Positions 3,576 through 40,828 of a stretch of DNA of 57,026 nt are shown here, piece by piece (within the stretch, counting starts at the first letter, position 1; every line of letters begins with the position of its first letter). The notes under the pieces are model-generated. The model had not been told where the DNA came from, searched no databases, and saw only the letters and a program-made list of their open reading frames with translations. A program made the translations under genes and the position numbers. Source of the DNA: Thermodesulfovibrionales bacterium (GTDB lineage: Bacteria > Nitrospirota > Thermodesulfovibrionia > Thermodesulfovibrionales > SM23-35); the NCBI GenBank assembly GCA_030019415.1, contig JASEEX010000008.1, positions 1 to 57,026 on the forward strand, written 5' to 3'.

Positions 3576-3590
3576 AGATTAGCCTCCGTG

Positions 3591-3728
3591 CTAATATTTG
3601 CGCTCTCCGCTTAGGATGAAATAAATTAATATAAATACAAACATCGCCAGAACGGCTACCGCATATTCATAGCCCTTAGTTGTAAAAATCTGATCAAAGA
3701 TGTGGAATTTTATCCCCAAAATCTCCAT
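3591..3728 (-). CDS. hmcD: HmcD-like 45-aa single-TM protein (missing from ORF track)
   Basis: AGGAGGA RBS; MEILGIKFHIFDQIFTTKGYEYAVAVLAMFVFILIYFILSGERKY; size, TK..Y motif and position between hmcA and hmcB fit HmcD. Confidence 0.7.
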   Translation of the reverse strand: MEILGIKFHIFDQIFTTKGYEYAVAVLAMFVFILIYFILSGERKY

Positions 3729-3746
3729 TCAAATCCTCCTTTTTGC

Positions 3747-5366
3747 TTAACCAGGTTTCGAGATGATATCTACAGGCCTGATTTCTTTTTCTTCATGACA
3801 ATCTGTACATTTCTTTGGCTTTTCGAGTTCCATCTTCTCATGGCATTGTATACACTGACGATGATAAGCAGCGAGTAACCGAGGTCTGTTCGGGTGCAGC
3901 GGGTCAAAAGTGATAGTGTGGCAATTCCTGCAAAATGGAGGGGTGTCTTTCTTGGCTTCGGCTTCGGCTCGACTCTGATGATGGCACCCATCGCAGATAG
4001 TCTGCATCTTTGCATGGAAGTACCTTCCCATTTTGCTATCATTGGATATCTTTACGAGCTTCTCGATGATTTTACGATGTGGAAACTTAGCGGGTTTGAA
4101 TTCTTTTTCCAAAATCTTTACTTCTACCTCTTTTTTGACTACTTCTGGATCAAGCCCAACAACGGAAAGCTTTGGTGGTTCGGGCAGTTCCTTTTTACCC
4201 GTATGGCAACGAACACAGGTCTCTTTCTTAGGACCTTTTGTTTGTATATCCATTATAGGAAGTAGACCGTGGCATCCAGCACAATCTTTTTCTCTCTTCT
4301 TGACCCCATGGCAACCGGCACAGCTTTTTTCAGACAGGATATCATGATAAGCACTTGCAGTATTGACCCATCTTCCGTTTTGATTCCCTATGAGATCATG
4401 GCATTCTTTGCAGGCATATAATGTTTCATGGTGACAGCCTTTGCACGTTTTAGAATATTTTTCATGGGCCTTATGATCAAGAAGAACTCCCTTCATCTTT
4501 GCATTTTCAATATCTATGAGTGGTTTTTCTAGTTGACCACTGTCAGGTCGGGGGACCTTTTCAAGTTCAGCAACGGTTTTATACTTTTCTGTGTGACATT
4601 TTGAGCAGACAATAGGACCGGCCTTTTCCTCTTTTCCCATAAAATGGAGGTGGCAGTTGAGGCATCTTGTATGAGAAACCTTCTGTACAGTAAAGCCTTT
4701 CTTGGCTGTAACCTCATTTGGGGCTGCCAGGAGGGGGCTCCTCTTTTTACCGACATCATGGCAGCTGTAGCAGGACCACTCTCTCCCTTTTTCATACACT
4801 GGTTCTTCATTGTAAACATGGTGGCAGAGGTCACAATTGTCTTTAATCTTCTTTTCCTGCAATTCCTTATCATGGGTATCATGAACTGAAAAATCAAATT
4901 CAACGACTGGATATTTAAGTTTTACTAACTCGAATTCTTTCTTATGGCAATCCCCGCATGTAACAGGACCGGTTTTTTTGTCTTCTTTATACCGCTTTTT
5001 ATGACAATCGATACATTCATCATGGTATGCCTTCATTACTGAGTCTTCGTCTTTTTTCTCAACCTTCTTCGGGAATTCAAAAAGTATGAGACCCTTTTCT
5101 TTGTCGAGAGGGTGACATGTTTCACACCCTTCTTCTTTCAAAGCCCTGGTATGTTTATCATGATCAAACACTACTTGTGGCCGTTCTAAGGGACCGAAGA
5201 TTTCAGTATGAGCTATACCAATCTTGTTCTCGGGTTTGATCTCTTTTATCGGTTTAACTTCTTTAGGGGCAACAGGGCCTTCTGTAGAATAAACGCTTCG
5301 CAAACCATTAACAATGAAGAGCAGAAGACATATACTAATTACAAAAAATAATAACTTTTTCTTCAT
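3747..5366 (-). CDS. hmcA: Sixteen-haem high-molecular-weight cytochrome c (HmcA)
   Basis: Sec signal peptide; 16 CxxCH motifs counted in 539 aa; cytochrome c3-type repeats (FDHDKH, FPHRK). Confidence 0.92.
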   Translation of the reverse strand: MKKKLLFFVISICLLLFIVNGLRSVYSTEGPVAPKEVKPIKEIKPENKIGIAHTEIFGPLERPQVVFDHDKHTRALKEEGCETCHPLDKEKGLILFEFPKKVEKKDEDSVMKAYHDECIDCHKKRYKEDKKTGPVTCGDCHKKEFELVKLKYPVVEFDFSVHDTHDKELQEKKIKDNCDLCHHVYNEEPVYEKGREWSCYSCHDVGKKRSPLLAAPNEVTAKKGFTVQKVSHTRCLNCHLHFMGKEEKAGPIVCSKCHTEKYKTVAELEKVPRPDSGQLEKPLIDIENAKMKGVLLDHKAHEKYSKTCKGCHHETLYACKECHDLIGNQNGRWVNTASAYHDILSEKSCAGCHGVKKREKDCAGCHGLLPIMDIQTKGPKKETCVRCHTGKKELPEPPKLSVVGLDPEVVKKEVEVKILEKEFKPAKFPHRKIIEKLVKISNDSKMGRYFHAKMQTICDGCHHQSRAEAEAKKDTPPFCRNCHTITFDPLHPNRPRLLAAYHRQCIQCHEKMELEKPKKCTDCHEEKEIRPVDIISKPG

Positions 5367-5387
5367 AACCCTTCCCTTCCCGATTTA

Positions 5388-6758
5388 TTATCCTACTTTG
5401 AATTCCTCAGGAATCTCCATTACCTCGACCAGTATTTCACTGAAAAACTTAGTATGCATACCAAGCTTATAATATTTAATTATATCTTCTATGCCACTAT
5501 GACAGTTATGGCACGGGGTAATCACAATATGAGCGCCCGTTTCCTTCATTTGCTCGGCCTTTACACGGTTACTTATCGCTCGCTTCTTCGCCCAAGGTGG
5601 GCCACAGTTAATCACACCGCCCCCTGCACAACAGCAAAAATTATATTCTCTATTTGGTTGCATCTCTGTAAAATCTTCGCAGATAGCATTAGTAACATAA
5701 CGGGCCATCTCACCTAAGCCCCGACCCCTTATAACATTGCAGGGATCATGTAATGTAACCGGCTCCTTGAACTTTTTCGCAATCTTAATTCTTCCTTCGC
5801 GCAGGAGCTCATAATAAAATTGGATAGCATGGATTACAGGTACAGGGGGCATCTTCAAGCCCAACCACCTATTTCCTACATCATAAATAGAACGAAAGGC
5901 ATGCCCGCACTCACCCATAACTATTTTTTTTGCTTTGAGCCTAAAGGCGGCCTCAAAATGTGCCCTTTTAACACGTCCCATGATCTCGTGGTCACCTGAA
6001 TACATAGCCATGTCGCTATTATCCCAGCCGTCAAAAGAAGGGTACGTCCAGTTAATACCTGCTACGTTCATAATAATCGCTGCCTGACCCATTAACTGGG
6101 CCTGGAATTTAGGCTCAGGACCAATAACAGAATACATAATATCAGCCCCTTCCTTATCAATAGGGATACGGGGATTTTTTATTTCTGCCCGGATCTCCTC
6201 CTCTTGCCACTGCACGGTATCAATCCAGTCATCCTGTTTGACCCACATCTGATTCATGGTTACTGCATGGCTGTGGGCCGTATCCTGGAGATATAAAGGT
6301 GTCACACCAAGGAGATGACATATACGACGCACACTCAGCAGGATGTAAGCCATATCAATACCAAAGGGACAATACATACTACATCTTTTACACAGGTTAC
6401 ACTCAGTATAGGCGATCTCTGCTGCCCTTCTTATAAACTCTGGAGTTACACGTCCTTTATTCTTTAGAATCGGCCACATAGTCTGCTTGACCTTAGCTAC
6501 AGGAGCAAAAGAAGGGTCACGGTCGTTGGATAAATAATGGTGGCAGGCTTCAGAGCACAGACCGCAATGGATACAGGTATCCACGTATGTCTTTAGACGT
6601 GCACCACCCATTGCAGCCAGAGCCTTGTTTATCACCTTCTCTATTTTTTCAGGGGTAAGCTTTTTAATACCCTCGTCTAAACCTGCATCTACTATCTTTC
6701 CCCATGCTTTTTCTGTCTTTTTCTCAGCTACTGCCATCTTTTTCTCAGCTACTGCCAT
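5388..6758 (-). CDS. tmcB: TmcB-type cytoplasmic Fe-S/CCG-domain protein (HdrD/DsrK-like)
   Basis: CIHCGLCSEACH, CNLCKRCSMYCPFG, QDTAHSHAVTMNQMWV, MGECGH, HDPC, CCCAGGG, PCHNC; resembles TmcB from recall. Confidence 0.82.
   Translation of the reverse strand: MAVAEKKMAVAEKKTEKAWGKIVDAGLDEGIKKLTPEKIEKVINKALAAMGGARLKTYVDTCIHCGLCSEACHHYLSNDRDPSFAPVAKVKQTMWPILKNKGRVTPEFIRRAAEIAYTECNLCKRCSMYCPFGIDMAYILLSVRRICHLLGVTPLYLQDTAHSHAVTMNQMWVKQDDWIDTVQWQEEEIRAEIKNPRIPIDKEGADIMYSVIGPEPKFQAQLMGQAAIIMNVAGINWTYPSFDGWDNSDMAMYSGDHEIMGRVKRAHFEAAFRLKAKKIVMGECGHAFRSIYDVGNRWLGLKMPPVPVIHAIQFYYELLREGRIKIAKKFKEPVTLHDPCNVIRGRGLGEMARYVTNAICEDFTEMQPNREYNFCCCAGGGVINCGPPWAKKRAISNRVKAEQMKETGAHIVITPCHNCHSGIEDIIKYYKLGMHTKFFSEILVEVMEIPEEFKVG
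6717..6758. repeat. Perfect 21-bp tandem duplication at the tmcB start
   Basis: CTTTTTCTCAGCTACTGCCAT x2, giving MAVAEKK-MAVAEKK. Confidence 0.95.
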
Positions 6759-13738: not shown

Positions 13739-14333
13739 CTACCGCTCCAGGCGGACTTTAATCCCTTTTCGATGGAGGTAGTCTTTGATCTCCCCGATAG
13801 TATAATGCCCGTAGTGAACCATGGAGGCAATGAGGGCGGCATCAGCCTCACCCTTAGTTAAAACCTGGTATATGTGCTCAGGGGTGCCTGCACCTCCAGA
13901 GGCGATGACTGGAATGTTAACGTTTCCTGAGATAAGGGCGGTCAGGGTCATTTCGTATCCATTCTGGGTACCATCGGCATCTATGGAGTTAAGACAGATT
14001 TCCCCTGCACCTAAGCTTTCTGCCTCCATGGCCCATTTTAAGGCATCTATACCTGTATAGGTTCTTCCTCCGTGGATAACAATTTCGTAGCCGGAGGGGA
14101 TATTTTCTGATTTCTCAACCTTCTTTACATCCATCCCCAAAACGATGCACTGGCTCCCGAAAGACTTAGCTCCCTCGGAAATAATCCCTGGATTCTTTAC
14201 TGCCGCCGTATTGACGCCCACCTTCTCCGCCCCGGCCAGAAGAATCCGGCGCACATCCTCTGTTGTCCTGATTCCTCCCCCTACTGAGAAGGGAATGAAA
14301 ATCTCTTTAGCCACACTGCGAACTACATCGATT
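13739..14333 (-). pseudogene. hisF: HisF-like cyclase lacking its N-terminal part
   Basis: Begins at [21 protein letters not shown]; no IIPCLD/DPV/LDI N-terminus; fused directly to LSAAWQLAL of the upstream gene. Confidence 0.8.
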
Positions 14334-14894
14334 TAAAGCAAGCTGCCACGCAGCACTCAATCCCCAGGACCTCCACCAATGACAGCTATTGTATGTCCTG
14401 ATGGTTTTTCCGTCTTTGGTGCTGGCAGGTCAATGGCAAGGCGTCCGTATTTATCAATGCTAAGAGGTTTGTCAAGCTGTCCCCTCGTGCAGCCCTGCAT
14501 GCAGAGGTTTGGACATATCTGTCCACATACCGTTGCAGGTAACGGGCTATATTGCAAAACCAGTTCCAGCGCCTCATGGAGTTTGCCCTGTCTTATAAGA
14601 GAAGCCCTTTTGTGTGAGGGTATATGTGTTGGGCATGCATACGCACATGGTGGCGCATACTTTTCATTTGCCCAGACCGGTTTATTTCGTCTATCCTTTC
14701 CTGTTGTTATATGCTGCAGCATTAAATGCACCATTGGTAACATCTCCTAAAACAGTAATTTTTGCACCACAGTTAAGCCAGCCTATGTCGTCAGAGGCAC
14801 TTCCTTTTACAATAATCTCGGTACCGAACATTCCCATGCTTCCAAGCCTCTGACCAACAGGACCCTCTACAGTTATTTTTATAGTCTCCCCCTT

Positions 14895-14909
14895 TCCGCC
14901 TGAGGCGGA
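14895..14909. repeat. 15-bp palindrome TCCGCCTGAGGCGGA
   Basis: Flanked by CCTT direct repeat; encodes SASGG inside the ORF. Confidence 0.85.
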
Positions 14910-15089
14910 CCTTGGCCAGATTCTGCCACCAATGCCATGCTGCCCATCAGCTATTATATGCAGTTCTCTTGCACCATCCCTGACCGCTTGCTGTATCTGC
15001 TCTTCAAGTATACGTGAAGGTACCCTTTTACCATTTACATTACCGTAAATGGTGACAATATCTTTTTTGTATGTCTTTTGACTGTTGAC

Positions 15090-15104
15090 TCCGCCTGAGG
15101 CGGA
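15090..15104. repeat. 15-bp palindrome TCCGCCTGAGGCGGA inside a TTGACTG heptamer array
   Basis: Flanked by TGAC direct repeat; encodes SASGG. Confidence 0.85.
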
Positions 15105-15129
15105 TGACTGTTGACTGTTGACTAATTTG

Positions 15130-15664
15130 TTAGCACGCATAACTAATCTCTAACCTCTCTGCCATTGCCTTGTCGTCTATACTCAGTCCGTCAGACATGC
15201 CAATGGGTAATTCTGTGCTCCTGCCCATTGGTGCAAATATCTTCTTTAACTCCACATTAGCAGCCTTGAAGATCTCTACCAGACGTTCAGCAACCCTATC
15301 AGAGTCAAGCCTTCTATAAAGTTTTGGGTCCTGTATAGTTATACCTCTTGGGCACTTACCTGTATTGCAGATGTTACAGCGATTATATTCGTCTCCGAAA
15401 CAATCTGCAGCCGCCTGCATTATGTATTTCCCAATAGAAACTGCTGAGCTGAACAATTCTCTGAACCTTAACAGTGGGTTCGATAGCCTTAACAGGACAT
15501 ACGGCAGTGCAACTGCCGCACCTCTTACATCTGTCGTCTCTCCAACGGATTATATATGGGAACTCCTTTAATGAGAGTTTATGATTGTAGTCTAATTTTG
15601 GGCGTAGGAGGGACTCCGTCCCTCCTACGAGACCTCCCTGAATTTTCCCTTCTATACTTATCAT
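15130..15664 (-). pseudogene. FMN glutamate-synthase subunit with most of its interior deleted
   Basis: N-terminal ferredoxin motif CKRCGSCTAVCP joined out of frame to the C-terminal CNICNTGKCPRGIT..DP segment. Confidence 0.8.
15603..15629. repeat. GTAG-type REP-like hairpin inside the ORF start
   Basis: CGTAGGAGGGA-CTCCG-TCCCTCCTACG perfect 11-bp stem. Confidence 0.7.
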
Positions 15665-15803
15665 GATATCACCCCTTTTGTTTGTATTTTCAAGGGGATT
15701 TCAAAAGGGGGAGGCTTGACGATTACCATGTCATATTTCATTGGAAATATATCCTCACATATTGCTTTTTCTCCGGTTAACCTATCTAAATTTGCTTCAA
15801 ATC

Positions 15804-16851: not shown

Positions 16852-19530
16852 TCAGGACTCCTTTTGCGGAACAATCCTCACGGCACATATCTTTGTCTCT
16901 AAAGTCTTTGCAGCCGGATCAGGAGAAGGATTAATAAGTTGGTTAATCTCCTTTTCCAAAAGATACATAGTTACTAAACCAGGTGGAGAAGCAGTCGTCA
17001 CCACTGCCTGTCCCTCTATTTCTCCCCAACGCGAAATTACTCTTACCACTTCTCCATTCTTGATCTCAAAATCAGTTGCATCTTTTGGGTTTATATATAC
17101 AAGCCTTTTTGCTCTTAAGGCCTTGAGTCCATCAACTTTCTGTGATAAAATGCCGTCTGAGTAAATATCCCTCTCTGCAATTAAGATCAGTGGGTAATCA
17201 ACATCGGGGACCTCCGCAGGGGGTCTGTATTGTAATGGTGTAAATTTGTACTTTCCATTTTGACCAGTCAAGCTTGTTTCAGCAAGATCAGACCATTTTA
17301 AACTACCTTTTCTCAGGCTGTTGTAAGAGATGTTTCTATATATAGGTGTGACTGATGCAATCTCAGACATAATATCTTCAGGGTTATTAAAATCAAATCC
17401 TCTACTGCCCATCCTCTCTGCTAAATTACAGATAATCTCCCAATCTGGCCTTGAATTGCCAATCGGCTCCATCGCTTTATTGATAATTTGAACCCGTGTC
17501 TCCGTATTTGTAAAAGTTCCATCTTTTTCGGCAAAGCTTGCTGCAGGTAAGATGACATCGGCAAATTGAGCCGTGTCATTTAAGAAGATGTCCTGAAAGA
17601 TGATGAATTCTGCCTTTTTTAATGCCTCCTTAACTTTATGTGAGCCGGCTATATTTGATACAGGATCAGAGCCCATGATATAGAAGGCTTTTATCTTTCC
17701 TTCTAAGGTATCCTGTAGTATTCCGGTGAGGGTTAGCCCGGGATTTGGGTTTAGGTCCTTTCCCCAAATGGATTTAAATCTCTTTCTCATTTCAGGTTGG
17801 TCCACTGCTTGGTACCCAGGATAAAAATCAGGTAGACAACCCATGTCGCAGACACCCTGCGAATTATTGTGGTCCATGAGTGGGTTAATACCATAGGAAG
17901 GCTTTGTAATGTTTCCTGTGAGCATAGATAAATTGATAAGTCCAAGCACATTATCTGTGCCATGAGAGTATTGAGTGAGCCCACTGGACCAGAGTATCGC
18001 TGATGGTTTATTAGTTGCAAAAATCTTCGCAGCCGAAGCAACCTTATCCCTTGAAACACCGGTAATCCTTTCTACTTTTCCAGATGGGAAATCATCTAAG
18101 GAATTTTTGAAGTCCTCAAAATTCTCACACTTTTCCTGGATAAAGGCATTATCGTGTAATTCTCCATCTAAAATTGCTTTGCACATACCCATAAAAAGGG
18201 CTAAATCTGTTCCAGGATAAGGTCTCAGCCATACTTTGGCGAAGCCACATAGGTCAATCTCTATGGGACTGACAACGATGAGTATTGCTCCATTCTCCAC
18301 TGCCTTCTTTACCCTCAACCCTATCACAGGATGGGACTGAGTGATATTTGCTCCCACAATAAGGATACTGGCGGCATTCTCAATCTCACTAATAGAGTTA
18401 GTGAGGGCATTTATTCCGTTTGTCTTAAGAAGAGCAGTAATAGAAGGAGCATCGCATAGTCGAACAGAACTATCAATGTTATTCGTGCCCATTACTACCC
18501 TGGCAAATTTTTGTGCGATATAACTCTCTTCATTAGTGCACTTAGTTGATGCGATAAGGGCAAACTCATCTCCTCGATAATTTTTAAGTTTACTCGCAAC
18601 TAAATCCAATGCTTCATCCCAGGATACTTCTCTGAAAAGTGACGGGTGACGAGTGACGAGTGACGAGTTTTTATTAGAAGATATTCTTATAAGAGGTGAG
18701 GTCAGCCTATCCTGAGAGTTAACAAAACTCAAGCCGAACCTTCCTTTAACGCACAGACGTCCACTGTTAACGGAGCTGTCAGCATCTCCTCTCACATTTA
18801 CAACAACATTGTCACGGATGCCAAGAACGATACTACAACCCACACCACAATAAGGACAGATCGTCTTGACTTCGTGCGAAGGACGGCGAAGATTTTTTGG
18901 TACCAGAGCACCAACAGGACACCTGACCACACATTCTCCACAGGACTCACATCTGGACTGGGCTATGGGCTTGTCTCCGAGCGTGGCTATTTTGGTGGAA
19001 TAACCCCTACCTGCGAAGTCAATAGCACTAACCTTCTGTATTTCCTGACATGTTCTTACACATATCCCGCATAGCACACATTTATTATGATCTCTTATGA
19101 AAAATGGATTTGAGTCATCAAGAGGCAATTCCTCTTTTGGGAATCTCAGATTCTGTTGAATCCTCTTTTTGTCTATCTTCATATAACCCATGATTCTCTG
19201 TAATTCGCACCGTCCCTTTTTAGCGCAATTTTTGCAATCCATGTGGTGATTGGCGATTATCATCTCAATAATCGGCCGCCGCACTTTATCTAATTCAGCG
19301 CTCTTTGTCTTAATGACCATCTCTTCCTTGACAGGTGTTCTGCATGAAGTGACAAGCTTACCATCATCCAGTTCAACAAGACATACACGACAGCTTCCAG
19401 CAGGCTTCAAATCAGGATGGTAGCAGAGATGGGGAATATAAATCTTGTTAGCCAATGCAGTTTCTAAAATGGTAGCACCTTTGTGAGCCATAATATCTTG
19501 ATCGTTAATTTTTATTGAAATCTTTTCCAT
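16852..19530 (-). CDS. FdhA/NuoG-like molybdopterin-family Fe-S protein with atypical active site
   Basis: [2Fe-2S] (C..GSCRVC..C), HHMDCKNC..C, two CxxCxxCxxxC, CPYCGVGC..CVKG; RLCDAPS and PLMDHNNSQG replace the FDH motifs RLCH and PLRGQNNVQG. Confidence 0.85.
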   Translation of the reverse strand: MEKISIKINDQDIMAHKGATILETALANKIYIPHLCYHPDLKPAGSCRVCLVELDDGKLVTSCRTPVKEEMVIKTKSAELDKVRRPIIEMIIANHHMDCKNCAKKGRCELQRIMGYMKIDKKRIQQNLRFPKEELPLDDSNPFFIRDHNKCVLCGICVRTCQEIQKVSAIDFAGRGYSTKIATLGDKPIAQSRCESCGECVVRCPVGALVPKNLRRPSHEVKTICPYCGVGCSIVLGIRDNVVVNVRGDADSSVNSGRLCVKGRFGLSFVNSQDRLTSPLIRISSNKNSSLVTRHPSLFREVSWDEALDLVASKLKNYRGDEFALIASTKCTNEESYIAQKFARVVMGTNNIDSSVRLCDAPSITALLKTNGINALTNSISEIENAASILIVGANITQSHPVIGLRVKKAVENGAILIVVSPIEIDLCGFAKVWLRPYPGTDLALFMGMCKAILDGELHDNAFIQEKCENFEDFKNSLDDFPSGKVERITGVSRDKVASAAKIFATNKPSAILWSSGLTQYSHGTDNVLGLINLSMLTGNITKPSYGINPLMDHNNSQGVCDMGCLPDFYPGYQAVDQPEMRKRFKSIWGKDLNPNPGLTLTGILQDTLEGKIKAFYIMGSDPVSNIAGSHKVKEALKKAEFIIFQDIFLNDTAQFADVILPAASFAEKDGTFTNTETRVQIINKAMEPIGNSRPDWEIICNLAERMGSRGFDFNNPEDIMSEIASVTPIYRNISYNSLRKGSLKWSDLAETSLTGQNGKYKFTPLQYRPPAEVPDVDYPLILIAERDIYSDGILSQKVDGLKALRAKRLVYINPKDATDFEIKNGEVVRVISRWGEIEGQAVVTTASPPGLVTMYLLEKEINQLINPSPDPAAKTLETKICAVRIVPQKES
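18639..18667. repeat. GTGACGA heptamer array (4 units) within the fdhA-like gene
   Basis: gtgacgg gtgacga gtgacga gtgacga g; encodes SSLVTRHPSL between PLIR and FREVSWDEA. Confidence 0.85.
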
Positions 19531-21164
19531 CAGTCACTCCCCTTCCGAACCCTACACACGCCGGATGGACACCTTTTTTCGTATATATGTGCTTCATACT
19601 CATCGCGAAAGTAACGCAGGGTAGTTAGCACAGGGTTAGGGGCCGTCCTGCCGAGACCACAGATGGAACTCCTCCTTATTGCCTCACCTAATTCTATGAG
19701 GAGGTCCATATCCTCAGGCCTGCCCTCGCCTTTAGTTATATCATCTAAAATCTCGAACATCTGTTTTGTTCCCAGCCTGCAAGGGACACACTGACCGCAG
19801 GACTCCCTCCGGGTAAAATCGAGAAAGTAACGTGCTACATCGACCATACAGGTATCTTCGTCCATCACTACCATACCTCCAGAACCCATTATTGAGCCAA
19901 TTTTGGTAAGAGAATCAAAATCTACAGGCGTATCTATCATATCTGCTGGTATACATCCACCAGAAGGTCCGCCTGTTTGAACAGCTTTCAGGGCTTTGCC
20001 TCCTGGTATTCCGCCTCCTATATCGTAGATGATTTTTCGAAGGTTAATCCCCATGGGAACCTCTATGAGACCGCAGTTTACAACCTTACCTGTCAATGAA
20101 AATATAGCAGTACCTTTACTTTTCTCAGTACCTTTTTGAGCAAACCACTCTGATCCATTCGATATTATTAAAGGGATATTGGCAAAGCTCTTCACATTAT
20201 TGAGAAGGGTTGGCCTGTTCCATAATCCTATCTCTGTTGTTCGAGCACGAGGCATCGGCTTAGGTCTCCCCCTCTTCCCCTCGATAGAGCGTACTAATGC
20301 AGTAGATTCACCACAAACAAAAGCACCTGCTCCCTGAAAGATCTCTATATCGAAATCAACCTCACTGCCCAAGATATGGCCACCAAGAAACCTGTTTTGC
20401 CTTGCCTGCTCAATAGCAATCTTTAGCCGCTTCACTGCTAATGGGTATTCTGCCCTCACATAGATAAGGCCGTTTCTGGCCCCTGTGGCATAACCTGCAA
20501 TTATCATCCCCTCCAAGACTGAATGGGGGTTTCCTTCCATAACAGAACGGTCCTGGAATGCTCCAGGGTCGCCTTCATCAGCATTGCATATTACATACTT
20601 TTCTTCACATGTTGTTCTGCGGCATGCCTCCCATTTGAGGCCAGTAGGAAAACCAGCGCCACCAAGACCCCTTAGCCCTGAGCCCTTAACTTCAAGGATA
20701 ATTTCTTCAGGGGTCATTTCAAGAAGGGCCTTACGAAGTGCCTGATAGCCCCCAACAGTAAGATAATCATCAATGTCTTCAGGGTCAATTTTCCCACAAT
20801 TTTTTAGGAGAATTCGTTCTTGTTTACTATAAAATGGAATATCCCGATAATGTGGTATTGGCTTGCCAGTGATAGGTTCTCGATAGAAAAGACGCTCTAA
20901 TGGCTTCCCTCCAAGTAAAATGGAATGGGCAATCTCAACGGCATCATCAGGGTTTACTTTTGTATAGAAAAAACCTTCAGGTTCTATTACAACAATAGGT
21001 TCTTGTTGGCAGAAACCTTGACAACCAGTTCGTTTAACATGGATATTTTCTGTGAGGTTCAAATTGCTTACTTCTTTTTCTAAGGAGGAAAAAACTTTTT
21101 CGGCTCCCACAGATATCCCACATGTTCCAAGGCCGACTAAAATACTCTTCTGTTCATTGGTCAT
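19530..21164 (-). CDS. NuoF/HydB-like FMN diaphorase with N-terminal thioredoxin-like Fe-S domain
   Basis: GTCG..GCQGFC; GLRGLGGAGFPTG; NADEGDPG; CGESTAL; GGPSGG; CGQCVPCR..C; no C-terminal 2x[4Fe-4S] domain. Confidence 0.9.
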   Translation of the reverse strand: MTNEQKSILVGLGTCGISVGAEKVFSSLEKEVSNLNLTENIHVKRTGCQGFCQQEPIVVIEPEGFFYTKVNPDDAVEIAHSILLGGKPLERLFYREPITGKPIPHYRDIPFYSKQERILLKNCGKIDPEDIDDYLTVGGYQALRKALLEMTPEEIILEVKGSGLRGLGGAGFPTGLKWEACRRTTCEEKYVICNADEGDPGAFQDRSVMEGNPHSVLEGMIIAGYATGARNGLIYVRAEYPLAVKRLKIAIEQARQNRFLGGHILGSEVDFDIEIFQGAGAFVCGESTALVRSIEGKRGRPKPMPRARTTEIGLWNRPTLLNNVKSFANIPLIISNGSEWFAQKGTEKSKGTAIFSLTGKVVNCGLIEVPMGINLRKIIYDIGGGIPGGKALKAVQTGGPSGGCIPADMIDTPVDFDSLTKIGSIMGSGGMVVMDEDTCMVDVARYFLDFTRRESCGQCVPCRLGTKQMFEILDDITKGEGRPEDMDLLIELGEAIRRSSICGLGRTAPNPVLTTLRYFRDEYEAHIYEKRCPSGVCRVRKGSD

Positions 21165-21627
21165 TCTTAACTCCTTCAATCACGGGAGGAAATAGCTCAT
21201 CGACTTTTTCTGAGGTCATTTCACCTACGACGTCCATATTTACCCGTATACATGGCGCAAGGGCACAACAACCAAAACAGGCAACGGTCTCGAGGGTATA
21301 CTCAAGGTCATCTGAGGTTTCCCCCTCTTTTAAGCCAATCGTTTTTTCTATCCTGTTAAGGATTTGAGGTGCACCTCGAATATGACATGCAGTTCCCCTG
21401 CATACTGCAATTCGCTTCCTCCCTAAAGGTAAAAGTCTGAACTGTGCATAGAAAGAGGCGACAGAGTAAACATGGCTTTCAGGAACACCGATAAATTTTG
21501 CAATATCTACCATTGACTTCTCTGGCAGATAACCAAGATTATCCTGCACCTCCTGAAGAATAGGTACAAGCTCGCCCCTATCACCTCGATAGGATGCTAA
21601 AATCTCTTCTAAAAGCTCCTCTTCCAT
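21154..21627 (-). CDS. NuoE/HydC-like [2Fe-2S] subunit
   Basis: VASFY, CRGTACH, CFGCCALAP. Confidence 0.92.
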   Translation of the reverse strand: MEEELLEEILASYRGDRGELVPILQEVQDNLGYLPEKSMVDIAKFIGVPESHVYSVASFYAQFRLLPLGRKRIAVCRGTACHIRGAPQILNRIEKTIGLKEGETSDDLEYTLETVACFGCCALAPCIRVNMDVVGEMTSEKVDELFPPVIEGVKNDQ

Positions 21628-21635
21628 ATCTTTAA

Positions 21636-21866
21636 CTAACGAGCCTTGGGTCTAACCCAATCTTCAGGAACCCATGGCCTCTTAGCCTCAAGATTTCTAT
21701 CAAAGCTTAAAGAAATACACACCGCACGGCAGATACCGCATCTATTGCACTTATCTGTGTCGGCATAAACGTTATTATCTCTCTCAGATATACTTATTGC
21801 CCCTGTAGGACAGCTAACCTCACAGAAAGGTGATACACAGTATTTATAGCAAATTAAATTCAGCAT
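21636..21866 (-). CDS. Small 4Fe-4S ferredoxin-like protein
   Basis: CYKYC..PFCEVSCPTGAI, CNRCGICRAVC; AAGGAGG RBS. Confidence 0.8.
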   Translation of the reverse strand: MLNLICYKYCVSPFCEVSCPTGAISISERDNNVYADTDKCNRCGICRAVCISLSFDRNLEAKRPWVPEDWVRPKAR

Positions 21867-21876
21867 CTTTACCTCC

Positions 21877-23442
21877 TTATCCTAAGATTTTTTCTACTTC
21901 TTTCATGTCTGCTTCCATTACATATGGTATGCCAGAGACATCCGCTGCTTCGCGAGTAAGGGACATCAAGTCACCTCTATCTACTAAATTAAGAACAAAT
22001 TTACGAGCCCCTGCCATGAGCTGCTTGAGCCCCACCGCGAGTCTGTCATAATAAGTATAGACACCTATTGCTGCTGGAGGTATTTTCTTAAAATCTCCCC
22101 CATATTTTTCCTTGAGCGCTGCGGCACCGGCAAAGGTGCGAAGAAGGGCATCCTCATATTCCCTGCCCTTTCCATAAGTCTCTTGTAGAAGTTTTCCCTG
22201 CGTCTTTCCTACCATGCCTGCTGTGAGGGTAGCCCGCCCCATACATACCGCTTTCACGTAAGGGGCTCCAAGTGCTATAGCCTTGAAAATCTGGTCCTCA
22301 AGGACAATACCACCAGCTATGGCGACGCTGGGGATAAATTTACCCTTTTCTTCGAGTCTTTTTAAAAATTTATAAAGGAGGCTTTCGAGATAGACCGTGG
22401 GGATTCCCCATTCATTCATCATCCGCCAGGGGCTCATACCAGTCCCTCCGCCGGCTCCATCCACAGTTAGAAGGTCTATTCTGGCCTCCGATGCAAACTT
22501 CACTGCACGGGCTAAATCTGCTGGCCTGTAAGCACCTGTTTTGAGGGTAACATACTTAGCACCTATACTCCTCAGCCTTTCCACCTCTTCTAAGAATGAT
22601 TCTTCATCTACCATTCCGAGGCGGGAATGCCTCTCAAATTCTGGTATCCCTCCAAGTTTATGTGCCTCCTGGACTACAGGATTCTCAGGGTCAGGGATAA
22701 CGATATATCCCCTTTGCTTAAGTTGTATCGCCCTTTCGAGGATTGGTAGCTTAACCTCCCCACCAATGCTCTTTGCCCCTTGTCCCCACTTTATTTCGAT
22801 ACCTTCAACCCCGAGCTTCTCTATCGCATATTCAGGGACGCCGAGACGGGTATCCTCCACATTTGCCTGAATGAGCATCGTCCCATAGCCTTCATACCAA
22901 TCCTTGTAAACCTTTACCCTTCTTTCAAGTTCAGGGGATCTCGAGATCCCTCCATTTCTAAACTCTGCATTTGGGTCCATTCCGCAAACATTCTCACCAC
23001 AGACAAGGACGGATCCACTGATAGCTATGCCAATGGCAGTACCTTCCCAGTTTACCCTCGCTATTTCAGTCGAACCGAGGGCTCCAGTGAAGAAAGGGAC
23101 TTTCATCGGAATTCTTTTTCCATCAGTCCCAATCTCTGAAGACACACTCACAGCAGGGAATGTGGCCTTGTCAGGGTCGGGCTCAATACCCATAGCCCCG
23201 ACACATGTGCCCTGAATATTGAAGTGCGAAAAATCTACTGGATAGTCCTTTTCTGACCCGGAGATAACCTTTCCAAAAGGCTGCGGGTAAATAACCTCCC
23301 TTCCCCGAAGGGCAGATCTTCCAACCTCGCAGTAACCAGGACAACCATCCACACAGTTAACGCATAACCCGGAGGTAGGCGAAGGCGCTACCCTCGTCGT
23401 TGTTACAGTTGCTGCACTTGCATTTGGCTTACTTAGACTCAT
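21877..23442 (-). CDS. Stand-alone FMN-binding glutamate synthase family protein
   Basis: IEIKWGQGAKSIGGE, LKTGAYRP, DGAGGGTG, AIAGG, LGAPYVKAVCMGR; N-terminal CVNCVDGCPGYC; no amidotransferase domain. Confidence 0.88.
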   Translation of the reverse strand: MSLSKPNASAATVTTTRVAPSPTSGLCVNCVDGCPGYCEVGRSALRGREVIYPQPFGKVISGSEKDYPVDFSHFNIQGTCVGAMGIEPDPDKATFPAVSVSSEIGTDGKRIPMKVPFFTGALGSTEIARVNWEGTAIGIAISGSVLVCGENVCGMDPNAEFRNGGISRSPELERRVKVYKDWYEGYGTMLIQANVEDTRLGVPEYAIEKLGVEGIEIKWGQGAKSIGGEVKLPILERAIQLKQRGYIVIPDPENPVVQEAHKLGGIPEFERHSRLGMVDEESFLEEVERLRSIGAKYVTLKTGAYRPADLARAVKFASEARIDLLTVDGAGGGTGMSPWRMMNEWGIPTVYLESLLYKFLKRLEEKGKFIPSVAIAGGIVLEDQIFKAIALGAPYVKAVCMGRATLTAGMVGKTQGKLLQETYGKGREYEDALLRTFAGAAALKEKYGGDFKKIPPAAIGVYTYYDRLAVGLKQLMAGARKFVLNLVDRGDLMSLTREAADVSGIPYVMEADMKEVEKILG

Positions 23443-23726: not shown

Positions 23727-24332
23727 TTGATAAACTTCCCCATGTTCAATAATCAAGCAGCTGAACTCACATTAGAAAAAAAATTGTACCAATTAGTTAT
23801 CAGCAGGCTTGATGGATACAATATCCATTCTCAGGCGTATAAGGAAAAGATATTTAAACTCGTAGAAAAAGGAATTGGTGGATTCGTAATCTTTGGTGGA
23901 AGAAGAAATGAGATAAAGGGTTTCATTAACAAAATCCAGTCCATCTCAGAGATTTCTTTATTCATAGCATCAGATGTTGAATGTGGCGTGGGGCAGCAGA
24001 TCAAGGATGCAACCCTATTTCCATGCCAGATGGCTATGGCAGCGGCAATCGGTAGAAATATACCCGGAGATGTCATACCCCCTGGAAATACAATAAAGGC
24101 TATAGCTCAGGAATCGACAGATATTGGAATAAATATGCCCCTCATTCCGGTCCTGGATGTTAATCAAAATCCTGATAATCCAATTATCTGCACAAGGGCC
24201 TTCTCTGACAATCCTGAGGATGTGGCGTGGTTCGGCTCAGAGTATATAAGAATATTGGAGGGATCAGGCCTTATAAGCTGTGCCAAGCACTTTCCAGGAC
24301 ATGGAGATACGGCTGCAGATTCTCATATATCC
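23727..24332 (+). pseudogene. nagZ: GH3 beta-N-acetylhexosaminidase (NagZ-like), 3'-truncated
   Basis: ASDVECG, PVLDVN.NP.NPII..RAF, KHFPGHGDT..DSH, then an abrupt switch into AmpG sequence. Confidence 0.8.
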
Positions 24333-25003
24333 TATCAACATTTTTGGGTTCCGAACCAGAGGAGAGAATAACTCCTCCTTTTAGCCTCCAGGAGGCTGTA
24401 TTAGGTCCGTTAAAGGATTATTTTTCGAGAAACGCTACCATTCCGCTGCTATTTTTAATAGTGCTCTACAAGTTAGGAGATGCCTATGCAGGTGTCTTAA
24501 CCACAGCCTTTCTTATAAAGGGCATCGGGTTTTCGGCAAGCGAGATAGGTACAATAAACAAAGGGCTTGGCCTCGTCTCCCTGATAGCAGGTGCCATGTT
24601 CGGAGGCTCCTTAATGGTACGCCTTGGCCTTTTCCGCTCTTTACTCAGCTTTGGCATATTGCAGGCATTATCCAATCTCTCATTCGTGTTTCTCACATGG
24701 ATAGGTAAGAGTTACGGGATGCTGATTTTTGCTGTTGCCTTCGAAAATCTGAGTGGTGGTATGGGCACGGCAGCCTTTATTTCACTCCTTATGGCAATGT
24801 GCAATCATCGCTACACAGCAACACAATATGCACTGTTGTCATCCCTTGCTGCCCTTGGGCGGATATTTATCGGCCCCACTTCTGGTTTTGTGGCTGAAGC
24901 ACTGGGCTGGGCCGGCTTCTTTTTCATTACAGCTCTGTCGGCTCTGCCCGGATTGTGGCTTTTGTGGTGGCTACGTCATGAGGTATCAGCTTTGGAAAAG
25001 TAG
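24328..25003 (+). pseudogene. ampG: C-terminal half of AmpG muropeptide permease
   Basis: LYKLGDA, FENLSGGMGT.AF, TATQYALLSS; N-terminal half absent. Confidence 0.8.
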
Positions 25004-25076
25004 AAGGGGTTAGTATATCTGAGAGTGGTTTGATATAATTGCGGAGGCCCTATGGACGAGATAATCAAAGAGGATC

Positions 25077-25985
25077 ATGAAAATGAAGACTATTGATATT
25101 CATACCCATGGCATAGGTGGTTATGATATAAGAACGACTGCTGAGGAGGACATTCTTAAAATAGCAGAAATACTTGGCTCCTACGGAGTCTCAGAAATCA
25201 TACTCACCGTATACTCTGCTCCCTTAAAGGTAATGATGGAAAGTATGATGGCAGTCAAAAAGGCAATGGAGAAGCAAAAAGACATTTCAAATCCCCCACC
25301 CCCCTTTTCTAAAAGGGGGCATGGGGGGATTAATCACCCATCACGAATAATCGGCGTTCATCTTGAAGGACCCTTTCTGAATCCATCAAAATGCGGTGCC
25401 CTCAATGCAATGACATTCATCGAACTAACAGAGTATAACCTCAGGGAACTCCTTGAAGGTTTTGAGGATATTGTAAAGATAATAACTATTGCACCAGAGA
25501 TAAAGGGGGCTACAGGGTTTATCAAAAAGATATCAGATAGGGGAATCATTGTCAGCATGGGTCATTCTGATGCGACCTTCTCAGAAGCAGAGGCTGGTCT
25601 TAATGCAGGGGCGAGAGGTATCACGCACATCTTCAATGCAATGCGAGGTTTTCATCACAGAGAGCCTGGAATTGCTGGTTTTGGCCTTTTAAATAAGGAC
25701 ATTTATATTGAGGTTATAGCAGACCCCTTTCATTTACACCCAAAGACACTGGAGCTGATATTCAGAACAAAGAATCCCGGAAGGATAATAATTGTTTCTG
25801 ATTCAGTAAAAGAGACACCCTCCCCCTCACTCCCTCCCTTTGCTATTACTGATACTCAAGGCAGACTTCGGGGTGGCTCGATGACAATTGTTGAATCCTC
25901 AAAGAGATTAATCCAGATGGGATTTGACAAAGTCGTTATTATGGGATGTATAACTACGAATCCCGAAAGATACCTATCAGTGTGA
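25077..25985 (+). CDS. nagA: N-acetylglucosamine-6-phosphate deacetylase (compact)
   Basis: DIHTHG, HLEGPF, GHSDA, THIFNAM, VSDS; carries a hairpin-derived insert. Confidence 0.85.
   Translation: MKMKTIDIHTHGIGGYDIRTTAEEDILKIAEILGSYGVSEIILTVYSAPLKVMMESMMAVKKAMEKQKDISNPPPPFSKRGHGGINHPSRIIGVHLEGPFLNPSKCGALNAMTFIELTEYNLRELLEGFEDIVKIITIAPEIKGATGFIKKISDRGIIVSMGHSDATFSEAEAGLNAGARGITHIFNAMRGFHHREPGIAGFGLLNKDIYIEVIADPFHLHPKTLELIFRTKNPGRIIIVSDSVKETPSPSLPPFAITDTQGRLRGGSMTIVESSKRLIQMGFDKVVIMGCITTNPERYLSV
25290..25331. repeat. C/G-rich hairpin inserted in frame in nagA
   Basis: AATCCCCC-ACC-CCCCTTTT-CT-AAAAGGGG-GCAT-GGGGGGATT; encodes NPPPPFSKRGHGGI. Confidence 0.65.
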
Positions 25986-26001
25986 ACCCGGGTTTTTAAA
26001 C

Positions 26002-26527
26002 TCACGGTGGTATCATCTTACCCAGAATCACCTCATGGGTGGCTCCTGTTGCAGAGGGAAGGTTTCCGGGCTTTAGATTCAGGGTTTGATATCCCAGGAT
26101 AGCAAAATTGATTGCCTCCTTAGACTCAGGAGGGAGTTGATCCTGCCTTTCTTCCAGACGGTGGGATATGGTATATATTCTGACCATGAGAGGCGATGGC
26201 ATCTATGTCTTCTGGTCTGAATTCCGTACCTTTAAGGAGAGTCAAAGCAGCCCTCGCAAAGACCTCTCCTAATTTAAAATTCAATCTACAAATATGCTCA
26301 ACATTGCCTTTAAATGCCATTCCTATCTCATTTCTTAAAGATCTGTTAAAAGGCAGATGAATATGGTTGATGAGCTTAATCTTTATCTTATTGGAGTTAT
26401 ATCCTTCACTTATTTTATTATTCAAACCTTCTCTTATCTCTACGAGAGCAGCATCGACGCCGTCATGGGATGTCCCTGACATGAGACCTATAATCCTTGC
26501 ATTTCTCTTTTTTGCAATCTTGAACAA
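26002..26527 (-). pseudogene. anmK: Anhydro-MurNAc kinase with large internal deletion
   Basis: GLMSGTSHDGVD..SHGQ..H..GST joined out of frame near 26134 to the C-terminal KEA..FA.L..PGNLPSATGA..VILG. Confidence 0.88.
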
Positions 26528-30057: not shown

Positions 30058-30144
30058 GCCGAAGTGGCGGAACTGGCAGACGCGCTAGGTTCAGGGTCTA
30101 GTGGTTGAAAGGCCGTGCGGGTTCAAATCCCGCCTTCGGCACCA
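30058..30144 (+). tRNA. tRNA-Leu (CAG)
   Basis: GCCGAAG/CTTCGGC acceptor stem, anticodon loop TT-CAG-GG, long variable arm, GGTTCAAATCC T-arm, 3' ACCA. Confidence 0.95.
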
Positions 30145-30168
30145 TCAAAATTTTCATGTGGAGGATTA

Positions 30169-30678
30169 GTGAAAAAACTCACCCATATTGATCAAAAAGG
30201 CAGGGCAAAGATGGTTGATATTAGTAAAAAGCAGTTAACCCAGAGAGAGGCTGTCGCAAGAGGGTCTGTATATATGGAACCCGAGACCCTTATACTTATA
30301 AAAGACAGAAAGGTTCCAAAAGGCGATGTATTTTCCGTTGCAAGGGTCGCTGGTGTAATGGCAGCAAAGAAGACGAGCGAGCTTATCCCCCTCTGCCACC
30401 CGTTGAATATTACCTCTGTAGATATAGACTTCAACCTCAATAGCAGAAAGAATAAGTTAGAAATAGAGGCACGTGTGAAGGTTGTTGGACAGACAGGGGT
30501 GGAGATGGAGGCACTGGCAGCAGTCTCTGCGGCTGCTTTAACTATTTATGACATGTGTAAGGCAGTGGATAAGGAGATGGTTATATCTGATATTATGCTC
30601 ATGGAGAAAAGAGGTGGCAGAAGCGGGGATTTCAAACGAAAAATTTCAAATTACAAAGTCCAAAATCCAAAATCTTAA
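30169..30678 (+). CDS. moaC: Cyclic pyranopterin monophosphate synthase
   Basis: [38 protein letters not shown]; tail [11 protein letters not shown] is heptamer-derived. Confidence 0.96.
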
Positions 30679-40366: not shown

Positions 40367-40828
40367 TCAAAGGCTCATCGACTCAAGCCTCGCTATTCTC
40401 TCCTCTATAGGTGGATGTGTACTGAAGAGTTTCAGTATCCCACCACCTGATAATGGGTTGACTATAAACATATGGGATGTTGCGGGGTTGGCGTCCATTG
40501 GGATCTTCTGAGATGCCCAGTGTAGTTTTCTGAGTGCCCCTGAAAGGTATCTCGGGTTTCCGGCAAGCCTCGCACCACCTGCATCTGCAGCATATTCCCT
40601 TGACCTTGAAATAGCCACCTGCACTATCAGCGCAGCAATCGGCCCTACAATCATCATAATGAGGGCAGCTATGGGGTTACCTCCCTCTTCATCGTCTTCC
40701 CTGTGACCAAATATCATTGCCCACCGTGCCATCATTGCAAGGTAGCTGATAGCACCTGCGAGTGTTGCAGCAATGGTGCTGATGAGGATATCTCTGTGTT
40801 TAATATGTGCAAGCTCATGGCCTATTAC
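40367..40828 (-). pseudogene. htpX: HtpX Zn protease, N-terminal half missing
   Basis: Homology starts at VIGHELAH; [16 protein letters not shown]; no upstream half before the ccsA stop. Confidence 0.85.

Follow-up and report, generated by a model that had tools for sequence, protein, structure and literature searches.

We examined a stretch of 57,026 nucleotides (nt) from a Thermodesulfovibrionales bacterium (contig JASEEX010000008.1 of assembly GCA_030019415.1), hereafter called the window, and more particularly one of its genes, located on the minus strand at 16852..19530. Its product (P0001), encoded by an intact open reading frame (ORF) of 892 amino acids (aa), resembles the alpha subunit, FdhA or FdsA, of formate dehydrogenase (FDH) and is called here the FdhA-like protein. 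The gene is the fifth of a unit of six, all full-length and all read from the minus strand, in the order GltB-like, ferredoxin, NuoE, NuoF, FdhA-like, and NrpR. The first (P0275, 521 aa, 21877..23442) codes for a GltB-like flavin mononucleotide (FMN) and iron-sulfur (Fe-S) protein, with an N-terminal CxxCxxxCxxxC motif followed by an FMN triosephosphate isomerase (TIM) barrel; the second (P0274, 76 aa, 21636..21866) codes for a small ferredoxin whose eight Cys are arranged as CxxxCxxxxCxxxCP and CxxCxxCxxxC. Then come a NuoE-like thioredoxin-type [2Fe-2S] subunit (P0003, 157 aa, 21154..21627; 160.4 bits on PF01257 and 147.1 bits on NF005722, a NuoE model with a cut-off of 141) and a NuoF-like NADH/FMN/[4Fe-4S] subunit (P0002, 549 aa, 19530..21179; PF01512 and PF10589), which carries an N-terminal thioredoxin-like extension and has orthologues of 538-560 aa. 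The last gene (P0004, 15873..16874; 298.1 bits on PF01995, plus PF08461) codes for an NrpR-type regulator; its homologues align from residue 9, which points to the ATG at about 16850, immediately behind the stop codon of the FdhA-like gene, as its probable start. The successive genes are separated by about 10 nt, 8 nt, an overlap, −1 nt, and about 1 nt, and these gaps hold none of the predicted promoter or terminator sites, which in the window are not above chance (20 promoter-like sites for 17.2 expected, 14 terminator-like sites for 7.9 expected). No membrane nuo gene stands beside the FdhA-like gene, whose neighbours are only the five genes just listed.

The FdhA-like protein matches the Pfam families Fer2_4, NADH-G_4Fe-4S_3, a ferredoxin-like dicluster domain, Molybdop_Fe4S4, Molybdopterin, and Molydop_binding, which, at the level of domain composition, is the architecture of an NAD-type FDH alpha subunit. 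Its top matches among solved structures are FdsA chains (9wxb, E 6.6e-174; 6tg9, 2.6e-169; 7vw6, 4e-164), and it scores 683.2 bits on TIGR01591, the Fdh-alpha equivalog model, above the cut-off of 666.25; its relatives are named “formate dehydrogenase alpha subunit” or “molybdopterin-dependent oxidoreductase” in the databases. With such a score, an automatic annotation as FDH is plausible, as an earlier sequence-only reading of this gene had anticipated. The N-terminal Fe-S region (residues 1-275, 18706..19530, minus strand) comprises a [2Fe-2S] site (Cys36/47/50/63), a His-ligated [4Fe-4S] site (His96/Cys99/102/108), two ferredoxin-type [4Fe-4S] sites (Cys151/154/157/161 and Cys194/197/200/204), and the FS0 site (Cys225/228/232/260) with Lys262 adjoining it. 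All 20 ligand positions of the five clusters are thus present, and the five intact Fe-S motifs proposed by the earlier reading were recovered in full. Each of these ligands is also conserved in 102-105 of the 105 members of a clade of relatives, described below, that lack the formate-site Arg, the four FS0 Cys being found in 105/105.

It is in the molybdenum/tungsten (Mo/W) bis-pyranopterin guanine dinucleotide (bisPGD)-type domains (residues 276-892, 16855..18705, minus strand) that the protein departs from FDHs, the pocket being remodelled. When aligned to solved FdsA, “vrlCDaps” stands opposite “arvCHspt”, so that the presumed ligand, Cys359, is retained and the following His is replaced by Asp360 (codons of the pair at 18451..18456, minus strand); likewise, “npLMDHNNSQG” stands opposite “npLRGQNNVQG”, with Met552 (codon at 17875..17877, minus strand) in place of the formate-site Arg. 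The corresponding motifs on the minus strand are RLCDAPS (residues 357-363, about nt 18462-18442) and PLMDHNNSQG (residues 550-559, about nt 17883-17854), and the pocket residues as a whole are Ser355, Cys359, Asp360, Tyr521, Met552, Asp553, His554, Ser557, and Thr678. The His after the ligand is found in 63/63 canonical sequences, as is the Arg of PLRGQNNVQG, a residue present in 0/105 members of the Arg-less clade. The two substitutions that the sequence-only reading had pointed out are, therefore, borne out by the alignments to 9wxb, 6tg9, and 7vw6. Its further claim that the C-terminal cofactor motif (here LIAERDIYSDG, residues 783-793, about nt 17184-17152, minus strand) is degraded from LxTGR..H stands only in part: Arg787 of this motif is retained, close canonical relatives have LTTER or LTTDR..HFHT rather than LxTGR, and the Rhodobacter capsulatus enzyme has no His there either; what did hold is the loss of the HxHT stretch, which is missing, with a two-residue deletion, across the entire Arg-less clade.

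A passage of PMC8808070 states that no described FDH departs from this His and this Arg, and that both are needed for activity; as the FdhA-like protein has Asp and Met at these positions, it is very unlikely to act as a formate dehydrogenase. One could still argue, as an automatic annotation would, that it has remained one, given its score above the TIGR01591 cut-off, its best PDB matches to FdsA chains, and its retained Cys ligand. We regard this possibility as highly improbable, not solely on account of the two substituted residues: the gene context is that of nitrogen assimilation, not of one-carbon metabolism, and the same genome encodes a canonical FDH elsewhere. Indeed, this genome (1.94 Mb in 166 contigs, rated 100% complete) harbours three NuoE-NuoF-FdsA trios plus a NuoG, and the FdsA of contig C100 is fully canonical (CH, PLRGQNNVQG, TGR..YHTG) and encoded beside a formate-tetrahydrofolate ligase, which further supports the earlier suspicion that the window protein is not an FDH. 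The third FdsA-like protein, on contig C78 (922 aa), has kept the Cys-His pair with Gly in place of Arg. Its gene belongs to a cluster (54319-63200 of that contig; locus L049) in the order PntA-PntB-NuoE-NuoF(626 aa)-FdsA-like-PyrK-like-GltD-like, which resembles an unfused Nfn/Stn-like assembly.

The loss of the Arg is neither recent nor restricted to this genome. Among the closest 119 homologues (53-87% identity), 104 lack the Arg and most often have Trp instead; 14 are canonical, all at about 53-57% identity, and one has the Arg with Ser-Asp in place of Cys-His. At a larger distance, among the 150 best representatives of 50%-identity clusters, the full Cys-His-Arg triad is found in 51, the Arg is missing in 73, 22 have the Arg with an altered Cys or His, and 4 are gapped there. 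We also examined eleven related loci (Nitrospirota, Thermodesulfovibrionia/-ales or Nitrospira), ten of which have a readable FdhA-like copy: the Arg is absent in 10/10 (Trp or Leu), and the residue after the Cys is His, Gln, Tyr, Ser, or Asp, the copy of L009 having Ser for the Cys itself. A tree of 133 sequences (FastTree, LG+gamma, midpoint-rooted) was built with the window protein, its two paralogues, the ten locus copies, and, from the two homologue lists, every other sequence, provided that 650 or more of its residues were aligned; the sequences skipped in this way and the shorter ones did not enter the tree. In this tree, the window protein and the ten syntenic copies fall in a single clade of 58 tips (support 0.988), none with Arg at the site (Trp 40, Ser 6, Leu 5, Ala 3, Met 2, Phe 2), which is nested among Cys-His-Arg FDHs. 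As the Arg-less sequences are monophyletic and nested in this way, the tree indicates, as far as sequences can tell, one old loss of the Arg followed by drift at the Cys/His pair. This drift is visible in the Arg-less clade (n = 105), where the ligand position is Cys in 72, Ser in 19, Tyr in 7, and Gly in 3, and the next position is His in 39, Tyr in 26, Asp in 23, and Gln in 15.

One may wonder whether the substitutions belong to this genome alone, as the mark of gene decay or of a faulty assembly, all the more so as several neighbouring genes of the window are visibly truncated. We give this explanation next to no credit. The ORF is intact over 892 aa with all its Fe-S ligands, none of the six operon genes is truncated, the gene order is found again in 7 other loci, and 104 of the 119 close homologues lack the Arg as well. 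Private decay is contradicted by these homologues, by the 10/10 syntenic copies, in which the substitutions had been proposed for checking, and by the Arg-less clade in the tree.

In order to describe what the Mo-type domains have kept, we defined as FDH-invariant the columns conserved at 92% or more in 63-64 canonical sequences, that is, 72 columns, of which 61 lie in the Mo-type domains. The FdhA-like protein has changed at 8 of the 72, all within residues 276-892, and thus keeps 53/61 Mo-domain invariants, for 61/61 in the canonical C100 paralogue, 58/61 in the C78 paralogue, and a median of 51/61 in the Arg-less clade, versus 8/61 in the genome's own NuoG (C104). The expectation that the protein would be NuoG-like, in the sense of a decayed cofactor site, is, therefore, not upheld. 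In the Arg-less clade as a whole, 54 of the 72 columns are conserved in 80% or more of the members, and 10 fall below 50% and count as lost, namely 229, 355, 360, 372, 375, 521, 552, 557, 558, and 678, Cys359 being at 69%.

Such a scaffold may be read in another way, as that of a neo-functionalised molybdo- or tungsto-enzyme that would still bind bisPGD and convert something else than formate; in view of the neighbouring nrpR gene, this substrate might be a nitrogen compound. NuoE and NuoF would link the reaction to NAD(H). The Arg and His of its pocket would have given way to Trp or Met, Ala or Ser, Leu or Gln, and Tyr. Besides the retained Mo-domain invariants, Lys262 and the FS0 Cys are kept, Cys359 is present here and in 72/105 clade members, several of the pocket changes go to shared, non-random residues, and the genome encodes both MoeA and MoaC, the latter, involved in molybdenum-cofactor synthesis, within the window itself (30115-30678). 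As for the cofactor genes, MoeA_N is found in 9/10 other genomes with an FdhA-like gene, the exception, G157, being of unknown completeness, and this criterion is not discriminating. This is the main competing reading, though we hold a new activity to be somewhat unlikely. A catalytic pocket is hard to reconcile with a presumed metal ligand and a neighbouring residue that are not conserved within the clade, and the window's own subclade deviates again at the pocket, with Met552, Ser557, and Gln558. Moreover, scaffold positions are kept almost equally in the 33 clade members without the Cys (median 45/49) and in the 72 with it (47/49), so that scaffold conservation is not tied to metal ligation. 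Finally, the relative rates of the two regions are the reverse of those in canonical FDHs, the Mo domain changing more quickly than the Fe-S region: its divergence relative to that of the N-terminal part comes to 0.86 over 91 pairs and 0.83 over 1390 pairs of canonical FDHs, and to 1.35 over 5460 pairs of the Arg-less clade. The same contrast appears between the FdhA-like protein and its syntenic copies, with 71-95% identity in the N-terminal Fe-S region (residues 1-215), 49-71% in the Mo domains, and 41-70% in the cap domain. An intact and best-conserved N-terminal Fe-S region, a faster Mo domain, and a drifting Cys/His pair favour a role as an electron “wire”, a possibility already raised by the sequence-only reading.

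The genes around the FdhA-like gene travel with it, and this context, with a GltB-like partner and NrpR, is decisive and did not figure in the earlier reading. The order GltB-like, ferredoxin, NuoE, NuoF, FdhA-like is complete in the window and in 7 other loci, and L011 has a partial version. With the window included, 8 loci have nrpR after the FdhA-like gene, and glycosyltransferase genes take its place in L008. Identity to the window copies in the syntenic loci is 81-98% for the GltB-like protein, 78-91% for NrpR, 75-88% for NuoE, 72-78% for NuoF, and 68-88% for the ferredoxin; at 52-70%, the FdhA-like protein is the least conserved member of the module. The eight Cys of the ferredoxin are invariant in 8 orthologues, and this ferredoxin was seen only alongside the NuoEF/FdhA-like module. 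Its origin may lie in NuoF: both paralogous NuoFs of the genome (601 and 626 aa) possess a C-terminal 2x[4Fe-4S] domain that is absent from the window NuoF (549 aa), and the latter, 55% identical to the NuoF of C100, stops where the Fer4 domain of C100 begins. The 76-aa ferredoxin aligns to this C-terminal Fer4 domain of the paralogous NuoFs (36-39% identity over 36 aa, E 4e-5 to 7e-6), which fits a split-off NuoF domain, keeping in mind that the similarity is short and that ferredoxin motifs are generic.

We then looked at the GltB-like gene across a phylum sample of 151 genomes, 29 of which are GltB-like-positive, and compared the 28 loci other than that of the window. None of the 28 has a NuoE, NuoF, or FdhA-like gene beside the GltB-like gene, nor a comparable ferredoxin match. 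In 20 of them, nrpR comes directly after the GltB-like gene or genes (after glnA in L029), and P-II and/or glnA often lie near the GltB-like-NrpR pair. In genus g6, the GltB-like gene is followed in 7/8 loci (L020-L025 and L027) by a four-subunit [NiFe] hydrogenase on the same strand, which may form a separate operon and consists of an AsrA-like Fer4_22 protein, a PyrK-like FAD/NAD protein, and the small and large subunits; L028 has neither nrpR nor hydrogenase there. The GltB-like gene is the constant member of all three architectures. As the module is absent from 28/28 of these loci and nrpR is next in 20, the four redox genes resemble a cassette for electron input acquired by insertion, and the simplest reading of these gene orders would be that ferredoxin-NuoE-NuoF-FdhA-like was inserted between the GltB-like gene and nrpR, the GltB-like enzyme being the constant catalytic element. 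In a tree that omitted the partial L011 copy, the GltB-like proteins encoded beside the module form an exclusive clade (8/8 tips, support 1.0) with a long stem.

Several other features of these loci deserve mention. The genus g6 hydrogenase is another soluble redox module at the position held elsewhere by the NuoEF/FdhA-like cassette. In family f17 (L033-L040, L042, and L047), two tandem GltB-like paralogues, about 52-54% and 61-62% identical to that of the window, precede nrpR; in the two such loci that were annotated, L036 and L046, the latter with one GltB-like copy, genes for MvhD-like, MTHFR-like, and further strong Glu_synthase proteins lie downstream. The best 120 matches to the GltB-like protein (82-92% identical, 520-522 aa) bear the names of metagenome-assembled genomes (MAGs) of Nitrospirota, Dehalococcoidia/Chloroflexi, and Actinomycetota, and several of them lie on contigs equal in length to contigs with FdhA-like matches, which suggests either lateral spread of the whole cassette or binning errors.

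What the GltB-like protein does is best approached through its family. It scores 57.9 bits on the Pfam family Glu_synthase (cut-off 20.4, profile positions 185-302 of 369), which is matched by 22/22 members of the P0275 family; its relatives are named “FMN-binding glutamate synthase family protein”, and the nearest named Atlas clusters “putative ferredoxin-dependent glutamate synthase”. Searched against solved structures, the single sequence returned nothing, and a profile returned short matches to designed TIM barrels and a few weak others. A structural model gives an FMN TIM barrel (mean predicted local distance difference test (pLDDT) score 65.6, residues 1-96 being below 50 and unreliable); a fold search with this model found alpha-hydroxy-acid oxidases and IMP dehydrogenase (IMPDH) at Z 18-19 and the Azospirillum glutamate synthase at Z 15.6 over 286 aligned residues. 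The modelled fold is, in other words, that of a generic FMN TIM barrel, and does not single out glutamate synthase.

The link to nitrogen comes from the neighbourhood and from what the genome lacks. GlnA is encoded 3 kb downstream in the window, and P-II and GlnA stand beside the GltB-like-NrpR pair in several loci. No ELFV (glutamate) dehydrogenase was found above cut-off in the genome, the GXGXG beta-helix is represented solely by a truncated 149-aa piece (14691-15140, 21 bits for a cut-off of 32.5), and, apart from P0275, Glu_synthase-like matches are limited to IMP dehydrogenase and a nearby remnant of 54 residues. Across the phylum sample, the glutaminase domain GATase_2 is found in 2/29 GltB-like-positive genomes versus 78/122 others, related genomes not being independent; in the window's order, 18 genomes are GltB-like-positive, of which none has GATase_2 and 3 have an ELFV match (frames of 367-379 aa). 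Since kin are not independent and five genomes match none of the three queries, this phyletic pattern is no more than suggestive as regards a GltB-like gene standing in where glutamate synthase (GOGAT) and glutamate dehydrogenase (GDH) are missing.

Taken together, these results lead us to favour, with a probability of about 55%, the following interpretation, drawn from sequence: the FdhA-like protein would be a retired NAD-type FDH alpha subunit that has lost formate turnover and has been retained as the Fe-S wire and scaffold of a NuoE-NuoF-type NADH dehydrogenase module, the ferredoxin-NuoE-NuoF-FdhA-like block having come to lie, by insertion, between the GltB-like gene and nrpR, which codes for a nitrogen regulator; the block would feed electrons from NADH to the GltB-like enzyme. 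Electrons would pass from NADH to the FMN of NuoF, through the Fe-S clusters of NuoF and NuoE to the five N-terminal clusters of the FdhA-like protein, and from there, via the 76-aa ferredoxin, bound or diffusible, to the N-terminal Fe-S cluster and the FMN of the GltB-like protein, which would carry out a reduction of nitrogen assimilation, most plausibly the formation of glutamate from 2-oxoglutarate. A physical complex, this direction of electron flow, and this substrate are what we infer, and the FdhA-like protein may or may not still bind a pterin cofactor.

A number of observations weigh against this interpretation. The Mo domain is far from decayed if one compares its 53/61 FDH-invariant positions to the 8/61 of NuoG, Lys262 is conserved in 92% of the clade, and new pocket residues are shared among the 105 clade members (Trp552 in 66, Ala557 in 79, Leu558 in 79, Tyr521 in 74, and Ser355 in 78); scaffold retention and shared new residues would also fit a retained cofactor with a new activity. 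On the side of the partner, the Pfam match of P0275 covers a third of Glu_synthase, no solved structure is related to it in sequence, and its modelled fold is closer to alpha-hydroxy-acid oxidases and IMPDH than to glutamate synthase. GATase_2 has no match in the whole genome, and two genomes of genus g6 (G053 and G062) plus three f7 genomes match neither GltB-like, GATase_2, nor ELFV at the thresholds used. No fused form of the GltB-like protein was found at E <= 1e-20 among proteins of 913-2605 aa, which is itself weak evidence. As for regulation, the methanogen NrpR operator GGAAN6TTCC is not enriched in the window (3 matches for 1.71 expected, 27/100 shuffles reaching 3), and none lies upstream of the operon. 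Lastly, the GltB-like gene occurs without the module in 28/28 other sampled genomes; the module would thus be dispensable to it, and adjacency could reflect co-regulation only.

This last point opens the way to a free-standing NADH:ferredoxin oxidoreductase made of ferredoxin, NuoE, NuoF, and the FdhA-like protein, whose reduced ferredoxin would serve the GltB-like enzyme and perhaps other acceptors, and which might bifurcate electrons should the small ferredoxin stand in for the HydB-type C-terminal domain that NuoF lacks. Such an enzyme would be in keeping with a GltB-like protein that works without the module in other genomes and has “putative ferredoxin-dependent glutamate synthase” as its nearest named Atlas cluster, with a module that has its own ferredoxin, which aligns to the Fer4 domain found at the C-terminus of the paralogous NuoFs, and with a window NuoF that ends just before that domain. 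We consider it doubtful: module-linked GltB-like proteins form a tightly conserved clade of their own with a long stem, which suggests adaptation to the module, and the resemblance of the ferredoxin to the Fer4 domain extends over 36 aa only (E 4e-5 to 7e-6) and is of a generic kind.

How does a retired FDH wired to a GltB-like enzyme compare to known systems? One such system is the NAD+-dependent formate dehydrogenase FdsABG (6tg9 of R. capsulatus; 9wxb, 7vw6), which has the same NuoE-like, NuoF-like, and alpha subunits; the FdhA-like protein aligns with FdsA over its full length, with the five Fe-S sites and the Mo-bisPGD domains, and the Arg-less clade is nested within this family. Unlike FdsA, it has Asp for His and Met for Arg, lacks the HxHT stretch, and is encoded with a GltB-like protein, a small ferredoxin, and nrpR, not with genes of one-carbon metabolism. 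NuoG (Nqo3) of complex I is an FDH-related subunit that has kept the N-terminal Fe-S chain, whose Mo-type domain is non-catalytic, and whose partners are NuoE and NuoF. The FdhA-like protein shares with it the N-terminal [2Fe-2S] and [4Fe-4S] chain and these partners; it differs in its Mo-domain invariants, as seen above, and has no membrane nuo genes next to it.

Another such system is that of the NfnABC/Stn enzymes, transhydrogenases of the Bfu type: as described in excerpts of PMC12018979 and PMC7483475, NuoE, NuoF, and a NuoG/Fdh-like domain wire electrons to a glutamate-synthase-derived (GltD) flavoenzyme. In these enzymes, the GltD-like FAD domain is fused to a shortened Fdh-like domain. 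The chains 9bov_A and 8oh5_C of this group are among the PDB matches of the FdhA-like protein. In the window, by contrast, the presumed partner, a GltB-like FMN protein, is encoded by a gene of its own, the Mo-type domain has its full length, and NuoF lacks the C-terminal 2x[4Fe-4S] domain. This domain, typical of the NuoEF module of Bfu/HydABC-type enzymes, is present in both paralogous NuoFs and not in that of the window, and the 76-aa ferredoxin aligns to it weakly; in the Bfu survey PMC9304861, the words “glutamate” and “GltB” are both absent. A further likeness, by description alone, is the FDH-like complex iron-sulfur molybdoenzyme (CISM) protein of Dehalococcoides (DET0187), which, according to parts of PMC5736913, is without FDH activity and thought to couple redox partners; there, it is paired with an FdnI-type FDH and linked to a hydrogenase and a reductive dehalogenase, not to NuoEF. 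With NfnABC/Stn, NuoG, and the Dehalococcoides protein, an FDH-like part used as a wire has precedents.

The GltB side has its own precedent, as sections of PMC3087415 present the GltB-type FMN/Fe-S core as compatible with interchangeable electron-input subunits, including a proposed F420-dependent archaeal form with an FrhB-like subunit. In known glutamate synthases, input from GltD/NADPH, ferredoxin, or an FrhB-like subunit serves the core, and it is in this swappable electron input that the likeness lies; unlike them, P0275 matches part of Glu_synthase, with no glutaminase and no intact GXGXG domain. In the literature searched, we found no description of a NuoEF/FdhA-like input module for glutamate synthase or of an operon joining NuoEF/FdhA-like and GltB-like genes.

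One can go a step further and see in the six-gene unit an undescribed glutamate-forming enzyme of bacteria without canonical GOGAT/GDH. It would combine a glutaminase-less GltB-like FMN/Fe-S catalytic subunit, NADH input via NuoEF, and the retired FDH, in which the pterin may persist as a centre without catalysis, with a redox or a structural role. The complex might even bifurcate electrons, the split-off ferredoxin replacing a HydB-type domain and a strongly exergonic reductive amination driving the reduction of ferredoxin by NADH. We put this forward as a speculative proposal whose parts are improbable when taken jointly.

The retirement of an FDH subunit matters for several reasons. The Arg-less clade passes a curated FDH-alpha cut-off and is often named formate dehydrogenase, which may lead metabolic models built from Nitrospirota and similar MAGs to credit these organisms, wrongly, with formate use or CO2 reduction. 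From an evolutionary point of view, a catalytic molybdoenzyme subunit re-used as an electron wire would be caught here at an intermediate stage, with a remodelled pocket and an intact scaffold, NuoG displaying only the end point of such re-use. For physiology, the unit would be a candidate for the missing glutamate-forming step where canonical GOGAT/GDH are absent, with a GltB-like core that takes different redox neighbours in different lineages.

The remainder of the window contains several incomplete genes. Directly after nrpR, a chain of truncated genes occupies 13739-15700 on the minus strand: the Fer4 N-terminus of an archaeal-type GltB core (15383-15700), a 54-residue match to the C-terminal part of Glu_synthase (15130-15549), a GXGXG piece (14691-15149), a GltD N-terminus ending at GxGxxG (14357-14746), and hisF without its first 67 residues or so (13739-14332). 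These truncated genes look like relics of a conventional split GOGAT with its GltD. More truncated genes flank the operon at 23727-26527 and 40367-40735: the N-terminal part of a Glyco_hydro_3 protein, the C-terminal half of an MFS transporter, a Peptidase_M48 piece, and an AnmK fragment that covers, from the start, roughly 104 of 367 positions. In most other loci, a gene for a KaiC-HTH-cupin regulator stands ahead of the GltB-like gene; the window lacks it. Gene decay could account for these features, as could a faulty assembly. Farther away, at 1343-6758, lies a cluster of NrfD, Fer4_11, multihaem cytochrome c, and CCG-domain genes typical of anaerobic respiratory complexes.

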